DNA of 58,197 bases from Patescibacteria group bacterium (lineage in GTDB: Bacteria; Patescibacteriota; Patescibacteriia; UBA1558; GWA2-36-10). This document shows positions 1 through 58,197 of this stretch, piece after piece. The stretch is taken from assembly GCA_041665545.1 (NCBI GenBank), contig JBAYIQ010000005.1, forward strand, positions 1 through 58,197, read 5' to 3'. The translations under genes were made by a program, and so were the position numbers. The notes beneath the pieces are model-generated. The model had not been told where the DNA came from and did no database searches. It saw nothing but the letters and a program-made list of their open reading frames with translations. How positions within the stretch are numbered: position 1 is the first letter of the stretch; the number at the start of each line of letters is the position of its first letter.

Positions 1-227
1 AATCGTTACCAAATACACCTCAAAGAGGTGCAATTACGTTACAACACTCGCAATCCTCAGAAACTACGCTTACTTGTTAGAAAAATGTTACGTTTTGATG
101 ATAAATAGTAGGCCAGACCGCTTTGACAAGGGGGCTTATTCCTCTTCCCAAACACTTCAAGAGGGCTAGATGTTCCTCCCCTGTCAAGGGGAGGTTGGAG
201 GGGTTAAAAGATTGGGCTAGTAAAGTT

Positions 228-266
228 TTTCAACAAAAAGAAAAGCTCAGTCCCCGTGGACTGAGC
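228..266 (-). terminator. Rho-independent terminator of the Cys-rich ORF
   Basis: 9-bp GC-rich stem GCTCAGTCC (245-253) / GGACTGAGC (258-266) with a 4-nt loop. On the minus strand it is followed by CTTTTCTTTTTGTT. Confidence 0.6.
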
Positions 267-286
267 CTGTGATTGGAAAGACCGTG

Positions 287-538
287 CTACTCGGTCTTCT
301 GAGAAGCCAGAAAGACCGAGCAGTGTTTGTGATGCTCTCCCATGCAGCCATTCTTGATGCGGTGCCCGCAAACGCAGGTACTGCAACAAGGCAAACAGTG
401 CTTGGCCATGGACTGGCCGTCACTGCCTATGGTGTGGCACAGACAAAAGCATTCGTGTGGATCGACATAGCAACTGTCGCTGGAGCCCATCCTCAACTTG
501 TCGGCGATCAAGTCGCCAATTGGCTTAAGGTTGCGCAT
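287..538 (-). CDS. Small Cys/His-rich protein (83 aa), function unknown
   Basis: ORF-track protein MRNLKPIGDL... has 11 Cys and 7 His. GGAGG lies 6 nt upstream of the ATG (minus-strand read AAGAGAGGAGGTCAGTAATG). The coding region is locally GC-rich and has its own terminator. The overlapping plus-strand ORF 269..544 has no SD and a GTG start. Confidence 0.55.
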   Translation of the reverse strand: MRNLKPIGDLIADKLRMGSSDSCYVDPHECFCLCHTIGSDGQSMAKHCLPCCSTCVCGHRIKNGCMGEHHKHCSVFLASQKTE

Positions 539-592
539 TACTGACCTCCTCTCTTAGTTTTGAATTTCTTGGAAGAACCTATTAATAACGAT

Positions 593-621
593 AGCTTATC
601 GTCTAAAAAAACAAATGTCAA
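593..621 (-). promoter_or_regulatory. Putative sigma70-type promoter for the Cys-rich ORF
   Basis: Minus-strand TTGACA (616-621), 17-nt spacer, TAAGCT (593-598). The -10 is weaker than the other promoters in this window. Confidence 0.35.
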
Positions 622-641
622 TAAAAAAAACGCCGGCTGAA

Positions 642-682
642 GAACCGACCCGCGAGGTCGACGCGACCTCGCGGGTCGGTTC
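642..682. repeat. Perfect 19-bp GC-rich hairpin
   Basis: GAACCGACCCGCGAGGTCG, loop ACG, CGACCTCGCGGGTCGGTTC. It sits just upstream of the cassette promoter and is flanked by A8 and T4 runs. Confidence 0.8.
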
Positions 683-693
683 TTTTCACAAAA

Positions 694-729
694 CAAAAAC
701 CCCCGCACTACTAGGCGGGGGTTTTATTT
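694..729 (-). terminator. Bidirectional-looking terminator downstream of ORF 738..1268
   Basis: Stem CCCCCGC (699-705) / GCGGGGG (714-720), flanked by an A-run and a T-run. Confidence 0.6.
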
Positions 730-737
730 TAACTTTT

Positions 738-1268
738 TTATTTATAACTATTAATCATTTCCATGACCTTGGAGTCGGACGGCAGATCTTCAAAACCGAA
801 AACTTTTTGGCGATTGACTGCTAGCCAGCCAGCAGAGTCATCTCCTCGTTTTTTAAGAACCTCTACACTTTCGGTGCTCGGCTCTCCTCCTTCTTCGGTC
901 GCTGGCTTGTCCACAGTTTGCGTATCAATAAAATAGACATCACTAAGATAAATATTGTACGCATCTTCTTTGGCAACTTTGGCATAATATACTATGTTAT
1001 TTTCTAAATAAATTATTTTATAACCAGCTTCGGCGACTGGCTTCTTGGTCTTCTGCTTGTCAAACATTAAAAAAGCAGACAAGGCCAAAATCAGGATAAT
1101 TAGTAGTAGATAAACTCCGGTAAAATTTTTCTTTTTACCAGTATTGGATTTGCGAGCCACAAAATCTTCAAATTCCATTATTTCCGGCTCGGCTTTTAAT
1201 CTGGTAGTTTCTTTTTTAGTGGTGCTTTTTGCGCGAGGCATAAATTTGTGTTTAATTGCTAATATCAT
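738..1268 (-). CDS. Hypothetical membrane-anchored protein
   Basis: 176-aa ORF with a Lys-rich N-terminus and one hydrophobic helix (GVYLLLIILILALSAFLMF). I recognised no motif. The start codon is uncertain because there are several in-frame Met. Confidence 0.5.
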   Translation of the reverse strand: MILAIKHKFMPRAKSTTKKETTRLKAEPEIMEFEDFVARKSNTGKKKNFTGVYLLLIILILALSAFLMFDKQKTKKPVAEAGYKIIYLENNIVYYAKVAKEDAYNIYLSDVYFIDTQTVDKPATEEGGEPSTESVEVLKKRGDDSAGWLAVNRQKVFGFEDLPSDSKVMEMINSYK

Positions 1269-1323
1269 AGCAGATATTTTAAAATTTTACAAAATTAATT
1301 GTCTGTACTAATATATAATCAAG

Positions 1324-2397
1324 ATGAAGAAGGGCGATTTTTATTTTTATTTACTTTCCCAGGCCAAAATATCGGCTCGTCTTTTTTGGCGACTACAAAG
1401 CTCTTTTGTTGACAGTAAAAGCATTGTCGACAAGGCCAAGATTGACAATCCCCTAATTCCAGCCAAGCTAGCCCAAGAAATCAAACGAGTTTGCGTGGAA
1501 GAAGAATCTCTGGCCCAAAAATTCGAACAACTAGAAAATTATTTTACTATTTTGGATGATTGCTACCCCAAATTACTCAAACAGATCTATGATCCACCTT
1601 TATTTTTATTTTATTCCGGAAATCTAGAGTTATTAAAAAGTGACTATCTGCTCAGCATGGTTGGCTCGCGGCACACCACGCATTATCACCAGCAAGCAAG
1701 CGAAAACATAATTGGCGAATTGGCTGGCTCGCCACTAATAATAGTCAGTGGCTTGGCCATGGGTCTTGACGCTATCTGCCACCAAACGGCTTTGAAAAAT
1801 AATTTACCAACTATCGCTGTCTTGGGCTCGGGAATGGATCAAGCCAGTTTTTATCCTAAAATAAATTTTGCTTTAGGACAGGAAATAATAAAACAAAATG
1901 GTTTGATATTGTCGGAGTACCCCAATGGCACCAAACCAGCCCTGCATCACTTCCCCAGACGCAATCGAATATTAGCGGGTTTGAGTCGAACCACGGTCGT
2001 GCTCTCTGGCGCTCTGAAATCTGGGACACTAATCACAGCTCAAGTGGCCTTGGATGAAGGACGAGAAGTATTTGCTTTGCCGGGCAATATCAACCAAAGC
2101 TTGTGCCATGGTCCTAACAAATTACTGCAAAACGGCGCCCACATCCTACTGTCTGGCCAAGATATTCTGAATTTCTATGAACTCACCGGACAAAGTAAAT
2201 TGCCAATTTTAAACAACATCTTCACTAATAACGAAAAAATAATTGTGGATTTATTGAATATTGAACCCTTAAATTTGGAAAGTTTGATCAACAAAATATC
2301 CTGGCCTTTGCCCACCCTACAAGCCACTTTATCGTCCTTGGAAATAAAAAATATTATCCAAACAAATAACGATGGACAAATAGAATTAAAATGGTAG
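1324..2397 (+). CDS. dprA: DNA processing protein DprA/Smf
   Basis: 357-aa ORF with the DprA core strings GSRHTT, IVSGLAMGLDAICHQ, FPRRNRILAGLS and VFALPGNI. Confidence 0.85.
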   Translation: MKKGDFYFYLLSQAKISARLFWRLQSSFVDSKSIVDKAKIDNPLIPAKLAQEIKRVCVEEESLAQKFEQLENYFTILDDCYPKLLKQIYDPPLFLFYSGNLELLKSDYLLSMVGSRHTTHYHQQASENIIGELAGSPLIIVSGLAMGLDAICHQTALKNNLPTIAVLGSGMDQASFYPKINFALGQEIIKQNGLILSEYPNGTKPALHHFPRRNRILAGLSRTTVVLSGALKSGTLITAQVALDEGREVFALPGNINQSLCHGPNKLLQNGAHILLSGQDILNFYELTGQSKLPILNNIFTNNEKIIVDLLNIEPLNLESLINKISWPLPTLQATLSSLEIKNIIQTNNDGQIELKW

Positions 2398-2470
2398 GAC
2401 TTGATAATTTTTTTACTTTGTTGTATAGTCAGCGAAATTATGTCATAATTTGTTTAAATCAAATTAGTTT

Positions 2471-57153: not shown

Positions 57154-57250
57154 AAATTTAGTATAAAGTTACAAGTATAAAGTATAAAGTGATAGACTAT
57201 TTTTATTTTAAAATCTTTCTACTTTTTACTTTACACTTTCTACTGATTAA

Positions 57251-57526
57251 TTATTCGATCACCGCTAATAAATCGTCATGATTTAATATTTTGTGTTCCA
57301 CGCCATCTATCTTAATTTCTGAACCGCCGTATTCAGAAAAAACAACTTTTTGGCCAAGAACCAAATTTAATTTTACAATTTTTTCTCCACTGCCAATGGC
57401 AATGATTTCACCTTCTTGACGAGACTCTTTGTTGACTGTCTCTGGCAAAATAATACCCGCCTTGGTAGTTTCTTCTTTGGGTAATGGTTTGACAATCACC
57501 CTATCACCTAATGGTTTTAACTTCAT
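57251..57526 (-). CDS. groES: Co-chaperonin GroES
   Basis: 91 aa. MKLKPLGDRVIVKP...GIILPE. Confidence 0.95.
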   Translation of the reverse strand: MKLKPLGDRVIVKPLPKEETTKAGIILPETVNKESRQEGEIIAIGSGEKIVKLNLVLGQKVVFSEYGGSEIKIDGVEHKILNHDDLLAVIE

Positions 57527-57548
57527 ATTTTTTTATTAATTAATCAAA

Positions 57549-57575
57549 TTAGCACTCTCTATTTTAGAGTGCTAA
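57549..57575 (-). promoter_or_regulatory. CIRCE operator (HrcA binding site)
   Basis: TTAGCACTC-N9-GAGTGCTAA, a perfect match to the CIRCE consensus. It lies 23 nt upstream of the groES ATG. Confidence 0.9.
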
Positions 57576-57589
57576 TGATTTTTTGTCAA
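57561..57589 (-). promoter_or_regulatory. groESL sigma70 promoter overlapping CIRCE
   Basis: Minus strand: TTGACA (57584-57589), 17 nt, TAAAAT (57561-57566). Confidence 0.7.
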
Positions 57590-57612
57590 GATCACATGTG
57601 CCAAATAATATA

Positions 57613-57667
57613 GAAGGTCGCGCCAGCGACCTGAGCGTAGGCGAGCTAAGCTCGCCGAAGTCGAAGG
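57613..57667. repeat. REP-like double hairpin with a GAGCGTAG...GAAGTCGAAGG core
   Basis: GGTCGC-GCCA-GCGACC (57616-57631) and GGCGAGC-TAA-GCTCGCC (57640-57656). It is immediately followed by TTGACA (57668-57673). Confidence 0.75.
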
Positions 57668-57741
57668 TTGACAAAAACCAAGTAAAATGATTTCATTTCA
57701 ACTATAGTGAACAAAACCACATACCATTTGGGAGGTGAAAC

Positions 57742-57987
57742 ATGCGCGCCATCTACCACAAGAATCGTCTGATCAACGAACTCCATCGTCTCTTCTACGC
57801 CACCTGCGTCTGGGTCATGGACCTGCCCGACAATGTCCCCAAATTCCTGAGATACTCAAAGATGGAGCTCAAGGAGAGAGCTTCGAACACGTTTCACATT
57901 CTGCTCTTTTTCGGCGCCTATGCTCTGCTCGGCTTGATCGACCTCTTCCGTGGCCTGCGATACCGCCTTCGAGACAAGGTGCTGTGA
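57742..57987 (+). CDS. Hypothetical tail-anchored small protein (81 aa) in a GC-rich cassette
   Basis: GGGAGGTG has its GGAGG core 6 nt upstream of the ATG. There is one C-terminal hydrophobic helix (FHILLFFGAYALLGLIDLF), GC-rich coding sequence and a dedicated terminator. Confidence 0.55.
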   Translation: MRAIYHKNRLINELHRLFYATCVWVMDLPDNVPKFLRYSKMELKERASNTFHILLFFGAYALLGLIDLFRGLRYRLRDKVL

Positions 57988-58004
57988 TGCTCTTTCGACT
58001 TCGT

Positions 58005-58046
58005 GCCCTAGCTACCGATTACACACGGCGGCTGGGGCTTTTTTTT
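58005..58046 (+). terminator. Rho-independent terminator of ORF 57742..57987
   Basis: 13-bp stem (one mismatch, two G-U pairs) between 58005-58017 and 58026-58038, followed by T8. Confidence 0.65.
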
Positions 58047-58047
58047 C

Positions 58048-58071
58048 GACCCGCCGGGTGACCCGCCGGGT
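58048..58071. repeat. Tandem duplicated palindromic 12-mer
   Basis: GACCCGCCGGGT occurs twice in tandem. Each unit is self-complementary (ACCCG-C-CGGGT). Confidence 0.8.
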
Positions 58072-58197
58072 CGTCGCAAAAGAATCAAGAGCTTGGAATC
58101 AGCTGGACAGGTACTAGGTAGTTAATACCCATGTGCGTACGCTCATTGTTGTAATAACTTAAATACTTAATTAAAGCTTCTTGTAAGCTAACAAGAT

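Follow-up and report, generated by a model that had tools for sequence, protein, structure and literature searches.

Background

Bacterial lineages without Shine-Dalgarno (SD) sequences, lineages rich in leaderless mRNAs and the loss of the anti-SD sequence in some Parcubacteria are already documented. We analyzed the translation start signals in a stretch of 58,197 nucleotides (hereafter, the window; contig JBAYIQ010000005.1) from a bacterium whose lineage we read as Komeilibacteria-like, within the Candidate Phyla Radiation (CPR, or Patescibacteria). Native genes in the window have SD-like sequences at chance level, and six GC-rich genes have strong SDs. On balance, we favor the view that ordinary genes of this lineage initiate translation without SD/anti-SD pairing, and that the GC-rich class is translated through a usable anti-SD. 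In the searchable literature, we found no description of mRNA-side start signals in CPR, nor an earlier description of a non-overlapping class of GC-rich, SD-bearing, self-contained genes that persists in relatives. The split into two classes is the novel part of this work.

CPR bacteria make up a large, mostly uncultured share of bacterial diversity and have reduced ribosomes, and the choice of start codon affects every gene call. Provided that it is general, the two-class pattern could probe what SD pairing still serves where it is mostly dispensable, and would help to tell long-resident atypical genes from fresh horizontal transfers.

Bacteroidia (GeneMarkS-2 group B, which includes Flavobacterium johnsoniae and Bacteroides) share several properties with the window. 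In both, native SDs are virtually absent, upstream regions are A-rich and unstructured with k-mers of the AATAA/TAAAA type, and a few exceptional genes have a strong SD. However, the window's promoters are of the TTGACA-17-TATAAT type and do not fit the -33/-7 promoters and leadered transcripts of Bacteroidia, and about a quarter of its genes have leaderless spacing. The strongest bias at a single position is U at -1 in the window, but A at -3 in Bacteroidia. Moreover, SD genes in the window are far denser and are compositionally distinct.

Leaderless-rich lineages (group C, e.g., Actinobacteria and Deinococcus-Thermus) have a Pribnow box 6-8 nt from the start in 25-50% of genes or operons (bioRxiv 10.1101/193490), and the fraction in the window appears to be similar. 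In those lineages, leadered and internal genes use SDs, which is not the case here. Their genomes are also GC-rich, whereas that of the window organism has ~40% GC.

Parcubacteria without an anti-SD belong to the same superphylum as the window organism, and some of them are thought to form no SD helix (PMC9297842). That study covered rRNA and ribosomal proteins, while our analysis covers mRNA start regions and therefore provides mRNA-side data for its report of many Parcubacteria without the anti-SD motif. In contrast to these Parcubacteria, the conserved SDs on a subset of genes in the window suggest that the anti-SD is still used.

In structure-dependent SD-less initiation (Scharff et al. 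2011, PMC3121790; Nakagawa et al. 2017, PMC5397173), SD-less starts likewise lack local structure, and structured, GC-rich starts have an SD. These studies describe a gradient within a genome, whereas the window has two non-overlapping classes that also differ in codon composition, length of the untranslated region (UTR) and autonomous expression signals. Overall, the window appears to match a mixture of leaderless and structure-dependent/A-rich modes, in which canonical promoters are combined with SD-less leadered and internal genes.

Source organism, gene set and comparison data

The window's TopA protein is 98% and 91% identical to those encoded by two contigs from metagenome-assembled genomes (MAGs), the 91% figure being that of the contig labelled L009. 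(Contigs are referred to by such labels where they must be told apart.) The next match, at 72%, is Ca. Komeilibacteria CG11, which is followed by Parcubacteria/Patescibacteria at 50-69% identity. These relatives, and the name “Patescibacteria group bacterium” given to the MAG at NCBI, place the organism within the Parcubacteria/Patescibacteria.

Our gene set combines two public call sets with a list of open reading frames (ORFs), and three calls were corrected. The start of xth was shifted to M13, a small ORF at 269-544 was replaced by one on the minus strand at 287-538 (GC83), and the relA-parB spacer was found to code for a protein of 119 amino acids at 6250-6609 (mem119). The window is a case in point for annotation: calls for several small ORFs differ between the two pipelines, one of which put the Cys-rich ORF on the wrong strand.

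For statistics, an automatic pipeline took the longest ORFs with their first ATG and counted a duplex of -4.4 kcal/mol or lower as an SD match, in the same way for all comparison sets. These sets comprise 7 Komeilibacteria-like loci with 93 genes, other Patescibacteria loci with 461 genes, and Firmicutes and Acidobacteria genes from the same TopA search. As a control, we used dinucleotide shuffles of the 60 nt upstream of starts (300 shuffles for counts of -10 boxes).

Native genes start without SD sequences

A first-pass annotation, made from the sequence alone, had stated that native starts in the window are preceded by AT-rich sequence with at most a weak AAGGG, and lack SDs. With curated starts, a duplex of ACCUCCUUA with positions -22 to -1 reached -4.4 kcal/mol or lower in 4 of 38 native genes, and the energies were mostly positive. 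In the corrected set, where ACCUCCUUA was compared with positions -20 to -3, the best duplex was at or above -6.3 kcal/mol in all 37 native genes and usually positive. The automatic pipeline found SD-like sequences at 3 of 37 native starts (8%), compared with 17% at internal in-frame ATGs, and shuffled upstream regions gave 2.09 +/- 1.38 matches. Because the three observed matches are comparable to the shuffles and lie below the frequency at internal ATGs, they are at chance level. The fraction of genes with an SD is not above background, as is expected of an SD-independent lineage. The comparison sets gave the following frequencies:

Komeilibacteria-like loci (7): SD at 7/93 starts (8%), 15% at internal ATGs
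Other Patescibacteria loci: SD at 71/461 starts (15%), 18% at internal ATGs
Firmicutes (positive control): SD at 29/49 starts (59%), 25% at internal ATGs, p = 2e-6
Acidobacteria (positive control): SD at 72/216 starts (33%), 18% at internal ATGs

In Firmicutes, the 29 observed matches compare with 11.7 +/- 2.9 in shuffles. The absence of native SDs that the first-pass annotation had proposed is therefore borne out, and the normal SD usage that it had named as a refuting outcome of a wider scan was not seen among the 37 window genes, the 93 Komeilibacteria-like genes or the 461 other Patescibacteria genes.

The suggestion of AAGGG as a signal fared differently. Upstream regions are indeed AT-rich and SD-less, but GGG occurs in 11 of 130 proximal regions versus 19 of 130 distal ones, and AAGGG is therefore rejected as an alternative G-rich ribosome-binding motif. 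A k-mer comparison of the same 130 genes revealed no enriched G-rich motif upstream of starts that could replace the SD; only TAA, AAA, AATAA and TAAAA are enriched there. We also considered that mis-called starts might hide SDs. Among 204 candidate starts within the first 60 codons, 7 have a duplex of -6 kcal/mol or lower, and none of these is plausibly placed.

Leaderless-type spacing and the context of starts

Hexamers resembling TATAAT (with at most one mismatch) are most frequent at a distance of 6-7 nt from the ATG. In 10 of the 37 window genes (27%), a -10 box precedes the ATG by 5-8 nt, compared with 2.35 +/- 1.5 in shuffles, none of which (0/300) reach the observed number. The same spacing occurs in 13/93 Komeilibacteria-like genes (5.6 in shuffles; 2/300 reach it) and in 43/461 genes of other CPR (15.9 in shuffles; 0/300 reach it), but in none of the 49 Firmicutes genes. 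When only genes with their own upstream region are considered, about 10 of 27 have a -10 box 4-9 nt from the ATG. In six of the leaderless-type window genes, there is also a -35 box that matches in 4 or more of its 6 positions and is spaced 16-18 nt away. Individual cases are:

10168-10204, plus strand: leaderless-type start of the DUF4015 gene (10202), ATGAAA-16-TATAAT, ending 6 nt before the ATG
16571-16609, minus strand: leaderless-type start with its ATG at 16573, TTTACA-16-(TG)TATAAT, ending 8 nt before the ATG
10124-10162, minus strand: leaderless-type start of the M23 peptidase gene with its ATG at 10126, TTGCTA-17-TAAAAT, ending 7 nt before the ATG
57151-57188, minus strand: -10-like box of groEL with its ATG at 57153, TTTATA-17-TATACT, 6 nt before the ATG, in the 97-nt groES-groEL spacer

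The spacing of these 10 of 37 boxes would imply leaderless mRNAs, a property that the first-pass annotation did not mention, and is likely to be part of the reason that an SD is not needed. Related genomes exhibit the same arrangement at dnaG, where L097 and L099 (DnaG 97-98% identical) have TTGACT-17-TAATAT-6 nt-ATG. In an alignment of nine genomes, the topA promoter (TTGAYA-17-TATAGT) is conserved and an SD is present in none. Its -10 box precedes the ATG by as little as 7-9 nt (L016, L013) and by as much as 41 nt (the window), which corresponds to predicted leaders of ~0 to ~35 nt. Native genes without a proximal -10 box are likewise SD-less.

Native starts also differ from other sites in structure and base composition. 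The mean minimum free energy (MFE) of positions -25 to +25 is -3.3 kcal/mol at native starts versus -7.5 kcal/mol in internal windows (p = 4e-11), a reduction in structure of the kind seen in SD-independent lineages. U is found at position -1 in 62-71% of starts versus 33-36% of internal ATGs, in leaderless-like and other genes alike. The upstream regions are A-rich and G-poor, with A peaks near -11 and -5, the former falling where leaderless-type genes have their -10 box. A-rich k-mers are 2-3 fold enriched in positions -20 to -1, and the 130 genes yielded no discrete motif.

On the basis of sequence statistics, conservation and synteny, we propose that initiation at native genes would proceed as follows. 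Canonical sigma-70 promoters lie very near native genes, and roughly a quarter of genes, in which 4-9 nt separate the -10 box and the ATG, would have a predicted transcription start site at or beside the AUG. Most other promoter-proximal genes would have leaders of ~10-40 nt that are A/U-rich and unstructured, with U at -1. At genes inside operons, ribosomes would terminate and reinitiate where neighbors overlap or are 6 nt or less apart. The start would then be chosen as an accessible AUG that is free of structure and probably bound by S1 or 70S ribosomes, rather than by a G-rich motif. By contrast, the six GC-rich genes, whose starts are structured, carry a strong SD at canonical spacing, and have their own consensus promoter where one was mapped and an intrinsic terminator.

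The anti-SD could also be present and sequestered on the 30S platform, as in Bacteroidia, with SD genes translated by a subpopulation of ribosomes, e.g., those lacking bS21. Most ribosomes would then not sense SDs, and A-rich context and weak structure would be the sole determinants of initiation. The enrichment of AATAA/TAAAA and the unstructured starts fit this explanation, as they do in Flavobacterium (PMC6847099), and a few SD genes on an SD-less background resemble the situation of rpsU in Flavobacteriales (PMC9976891). Nonetheless, the promoters have canonical -35/-10 boxes instead of the -33/-7 boxes of Bacteroidia, and the sizeable fraction of leaderless-type genes contrasts with the 87% of F. 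johnsoniae transcripts that have leaders longer than 10 nt (PMC6847099). The density of six SD genes in 58 kb is also far above that of the one gene (rpsU) per F. johnsoniae genome (PMC13000453). We therefore regard sequestration as quite unlikely.

Six GC-rich genes carry strong SDs

A scan for strong SDs combined with a start codon yielded exactly six well-placed cases in the window. GC3 denotes GC content at third codon positions.

287-538, minus strand: GC83 (83 aa, Cys/His-rich), SD AGAGGAGGT, GC3 0.71
6250-6609, minus strand: mem119 (119-aa membrane protein), SD TGAGGAGAA, GC3 0.68
6674-6702, minus strand: promoter of mem119, a perfect TTGACA-17-(TG)TATAAT with 12/12 matches, leader ~58 nt
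22028-22444, minus strand: GC138 (138 aa), SD TTGGAGGCGTC, GC3 0.86, with its own terminator at 21971-21998
22870-23460, plus strand: NfeD-like gene, SD AAAGGAG, GC3 0.83, 5′ UTR ~155 nt
23504-25228, plus strand: flotillin/SPFH (Band_7) gene, SD AAAGGAG, GC3 0.81, terminator at ~25282-25312
57742-57987, plus strand: hyp81 (81 aa), SD GGGAGGTG, GC3 0.74, between groES and an AT-rich, SD-less insertion sequence (IS) transposase gene

The two classes do not overlap in either of their defining properties. The GC3 of the six genes is 0.68-0.86, compared with 0.29-0.47 for the 37 native genes, and their SD duplex energies of -8.2 to -12.7 kcal/mol lie outside the range of the native class. Their start regions are structured (MFE -6.8 to -10.1 kcal/mol). 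The promoters that could be assigned to them match the consensus and predict leaders of ~58-155 nt, and each SD-bearing gene or operon closes with an intrinsic terminator. The association extends to all CPR loci, where ORFs whose GC3 is at least 0.2 above the locus median have an SD in 15 of 21 cases versus ~8% of the rest (odds ratio 25.6, p = 3e-11). That GC-rich ORFs with GGAGG stand out had been recognized in the first-pass annotation, which saw fewer than these six; the ORFs carry GGAGG/AAGGAG.

The NfeD-flotillin operon is identified by a precomputed Pfam match to Band_7 and by an NfeD C-terminal domain that scores below the threshold (16.6 bits, E = 0.009). Of 17 GC-rich outlier ORFs in the window and the CPR loci, almost all are unannotated by Pfam; the exceptions are ThyX, a below-threshold cold-shock domain, a weak NfeD and a weak coiled coil. 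One pipeline called an additional ORF at 21923-22534 on the plus strand. It is probably spurious, since it reads through GC138 on the opposite strand and has its start within an arm of a repeat element.

Between relA and parB (window 6194-6844; L009 14954-15440), the perfect 12/12 sigma-70 promoter is conserved in L009. We considered that it might drive an RNA gene, and the spacer has no Rfam match; it drives the SD-bearing mem119 instead. The gene behind the promoter differs between the two genomes, being that of the 119-aa membrane protein in the window and of an unrelated, secreted-looking protein of 133 aa in L009. High GC content and a strong SD are common to the two genes. This exchange of GC-rich SD genes behind one promoter suggests a hot spot of cargo swapping.

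The pattern might in principle be an artefact of mis-called starts, or of GC-rich segments that were chimerically assembled from another organism in the metagenome. The contig does come from a metagenome assembly, the two gene callers differ on several small ORFs, as described above, and GC-rich DNA yields long spurious ORFs. However, alternative starts show no SD, and TopA, GroEL, DnaG, RpoD and PpsA begin at the called ATGs. The window spans almost all of the 58.2-kb metagenome contig JGI 3300037810 Ga0376277_0002854, and the independent ENA and Logan assemblies have identical sequence and junctions. Moreover, the GC-rich genes form four separate islands set within native sequence, and other samples (L009, L091, L093, L097-L099) have them in the same context or a related one. 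An artefact is thus highly improbable.

GC-rich SD genes recur in related genomes

Four of the six SD-bearing genes (GC138, NfeD, flotillin and GC83) recur in related CPR genomes, where they remain GC-rich and retain the SD. These four genes therefore appear to be not simply fresh imports. The first-pass annotation had asked how efficiently the GC-rich ORFs are translated in this host, and their recurrence makes that question sharper than first posed.

GC83 shares 90% identity with an ORF in L009, compared with 74% for the call on the opposite strand, and its SD is kept in L009. For GC138, there are just four homologues among 5.8 billion proteins. In the three whose contexts were read (L097-L099), the gene is directly upstream of dnaG in close relatives. 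Its GC3 is 0.89-0.91 in L097 and L099, the two that were measured. The SD CTGGAGGC, the promoter and a ~100-nt 5′ UTR are conserved across L097-L099, with the 5′ UTR nearly invariant. The N-terminal half of the protein, which comprises transmembrane and linker regions and contains in-frame indels, is hypervariable, and its C-terminal half of ~65 aa is highly conserved. Identity between the strains is 56-81% for this protein and 97-98% for DnaG.

The nfeD-flotillin pair was found in L091, L093, L095 and L096, and the range of protein identity across recurrences is 61-72%. The operon adjoins groES in L091/L092, which belong to a Patescibacterium whose GroEL and PpsA share 85% and 76% identity with those of the window, and it adjoins dnaJ and a tRNA gene in L093. 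In L099, an NfeD homologue adjoins GC138 as in the window, and its presumed Band_7 partner runs off the contig end. L097 is without the operon at the window's position. Given this absence and the varied contexts, the module has moved or was transferred.

The GC3 values in L091 and L093 are 0.56-0.79 for NfeD and 0.74-0.88 for flotillin, and 0.86 for NfeD in L099, in neighborhoods that are AT-rich and SD-less. The window, L091 and L093 share a TTGACA-17-extended -10 promoter, the start of the 5′ UTR and the SD cores, and L099 keeps the SD of NfeD. SD cores persist in the cassette homologues of L091, L093, L097 and L099. In Ca. Fischerbacteria, which use SDs and are AT-rich, the nfeD-flotillin operon is of ordinary composition and its flotillin is 53% identical. 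Native third positions are 56-58% identical between the window and L091, which is near saturation, and the GC3 of the module is >0.8 in both. Either the composition of the module would have been maintained, or the module may be spreading horizontally within the clade.

Two local details accompany these recurrences. The SD-proximal start of flotillin in L091 (9974-10003) is ATA instead of ATG; the next ATG is seven codons downstream, ~27 nt from the SD. The IS transposase gene beside hyp81 (rve family; 3′ end at 58080-58197, minus strand, continued in L006 50-928) has a GC3 of 0.30, is SD-less and is native in style. The matching position next to groES in L091 holds the nfeD-flotillin operon.

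Is the anti-SD still in use?

The persistence of SD cores on a minority of genes in several relatives leads us to infer a usable anti-SD, which is probably intact, as it is in most lineages poor in SDs. Neither the window nor the 1.37 Mb of fetched loci contain a 16S rRNA 3′ region, bS21, bS18 or bS6. Avoidance of SD-like sequence within genes, taken as a proxy for a functional anti-SD, gives an ambiguous picture. In native coding sequences of the Komeilibacteria clade (window, L009, L012-L017, L058, L091, L097), GGAGG occurs at 0.63x its frequency in synonymous shuffles (z -4.6). Other G4A1 permutations are not depleted in this way, and GAGG occurs at 0.84x.

An alternative is that the lineage has lost or mutated its 16S anti-SD, so that the SDs on GC-rich ORFs are inert relics of horizontal transfer from SD-using donors. 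Anti-SD-less lineages overlap with a group that lacks uL1 (PMC9297842). Native SDs at chance level would fit such a loss, GC-richness and SDs are both classical marks of foreign origin, and the nfeD-flotillin module occupies three different genomic positions. However, SD cores are kept in every homologue examined even though flanking intergenic bases diverge, and GC138 is syntenic beside dnaG in three close relatives. The closest relatives of flotillin (61-72%) are all in AT-rich contigs with an SD-less context, and no GC-rich donor above 53% identity was found among 5.8 billion proteins. In addition, the nearest named relatives by TopA are Komeili-, Buchanan-, Magasanik- and Uhrbacteria, which we take to be outside the uL1-lacking group. 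Loss of the anti-SD is therefore unlikely.

Several points weigh against initiation without SD pairing in native genes combined with a usable anti-SD. Our data are 58 kb from one genome and are not genome-wide, and starts in related loci are the first ATG of the longest ORF. Hexamers resembling -10 boxes are common in AT-rich DNA, such that the spacing peak is statistical and single genes may be leadered. Tsurumaki et al. (2022, PMC9297842) detected the anti-SD motif in just 48% of the 16S genes of Parcubacteria, which also favors its loss. The conservation of SDs could reflect the recent spread of a mobile module, which would remove the argument for an intact anti-SD. Finally, CCTCC, the reverse complement of GGAGG, is likewise depleted (0.54x), so the avoidance test is ambiguous: the cause may be strand-symmetric, such as avoidance of restriction sites of the CCTC type, or an effect of the anti-SD.

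A bolder reading, which we consider conceivable but doubtful, is that one small genome would maintain two regimes of gene expression, an SD-less AT-rich bulk of leaderless or short-leadered genes, and a few GC-rich SD modules that persist over evolutionary time and whose GC content and SD are held by selection instead of marking unameliorated imports. Structured mRNAs that can be initiated only through the anti-SD would then form a separately controllable channel of translation. Each such module would be an ORF with a GC3 of 0.7-0.9 that is preceded by a consensus promoter and a strong SD and followed by a terminator, and the two studied in relatives keep a long, conserved 5′ UTR. Candidate examples are nfeD-flotillin and the membrane-anchored GC138 beside dnaG. 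If true, this reading implies that the lineage keeps its anti-SD for a minority of genes.

Promoters, CIRCE and gene coupling

Sigma-70-like sites number 85, 67 and 87 in the three thirds of the window versus 48, 47 and 50 in shuffles. The top-scoring sites are intergenic and correctly oriented, including those of the tRNA genes, groES and the cassette. The relevant signals are:

12383-12411, plus strand: tRNA-cluster promoter 1, TTGACT-17-TAAAAT
12506-12533, plus strand: tRNA-cluster promoter 2, TTAAAA-16-TATAAT; tRNA-Leu begins at 12543
57561-57589, minus strand: groESL promoter, TTGACA-17-TAAAAT, with the -10 box within the CIRCE spacer
57549-57575: CIRCE (controlling inverted repeat of chaperone expression) upstream of groES, TTAGCACTC-N9-GAGTGCTAA, 0 mismatches, 0.02 expected by chance
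22553-22707: divergent cassette promoters in an AT-rich spacer, with TTGACA-17-TATGAT at 22581-22553 on the minus strand (GC138) and TTGACA-17-TAGTAT at 22679-22707 on the plus strand (nfeD-flotillin)
2401-2429, plus strand: topA promoter, TTGATA-17-TATAGT
20029-20033, minus strand: TAATG stop/start overlap of dnaG/rpoD, translational coupling
30305-30316, minus strand: TAG-TTG-TTA-ATG at the stop of a giant gene, with the ATG of a beta-lactamase-like gene 6 nt past the stop

Canonical promoters at the tRNA genes, groES and the cassette, a perfect CIRCE and tight coupling of genes had all been noted in the first-pass annotation, and each holds: the promoters are enriched over shuffles in every third of the window, the 9-N9-9 repeat has no mismatch, and the TAATG and the boundary at 30314/30307 can be read directly. 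Seven or eight native genes are 6 nt or less from the upstream gene.

The perfect 9-N9-9 repeat between a sigma-70 promoter and groES is shared with the CIRCE/HrcA system that controls groESL operons, and a CIRCE is also present in the relative L091. Unlike in that system, groES and groEL in the window lack an SD, and hrcA lies outside the window. The predicted groESL leader of ~27 nt is A/U-rich and SD-less, and the duplex energy at the groES start is +0.6 kcal/mol.

Other elements in the window

The tRNA-Asn(GUU) gene (14084-14744, plus strand) is split in its anticodon loop by an intervening sequence of 586 nt, and ARAGORN detects it only when introns are allowed. Within the intervening sequence lie the complete core of a group I intron (Rfam, 81 bits, 14473-14696) and an ORF for an HNH endonuclease (14154-14444). 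Two very AT-rich ORFs for GIY-YIG endonucleases (13407-13985, plus strand; GC3 0.26 and 0.16) are situated between two tRNA-Met genes of the tRNA cluster, and are probably free-standing or degenerate homing endonucleases.

The giant ORF (30314-42745, minus strand) encodes 4143 aa with only weak or faint Pfam matches (SH3_3, Phage_BR0599). Its upstream region consists of A/T only and is SD-less like those of other native genes.

A palindromic element of ~105 bp occurs in three copies (12085-12192, 21816-21925 and 46077-46186) and ends in inverted repeats, CATCCCGTTAGAAATT...AATTTCTAACGGGATG. None of the other fetched genomes contains the motif, and relatives have empty sites for all three copies: dnaG in L097/L099, the cytochrome-b5 gene in L097 and xth in L009. 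Each copy abuts the ATG of a gene, namely xth (M13), dnaG and the cytochrome-b5 gene. The element appears to behave like a miniature inverted-repeat transposable element (MITE) that lands on the start codons of putatively leaderless or short-leader genes and parts them from their promoters, and it may carry an outward-facing promoter.

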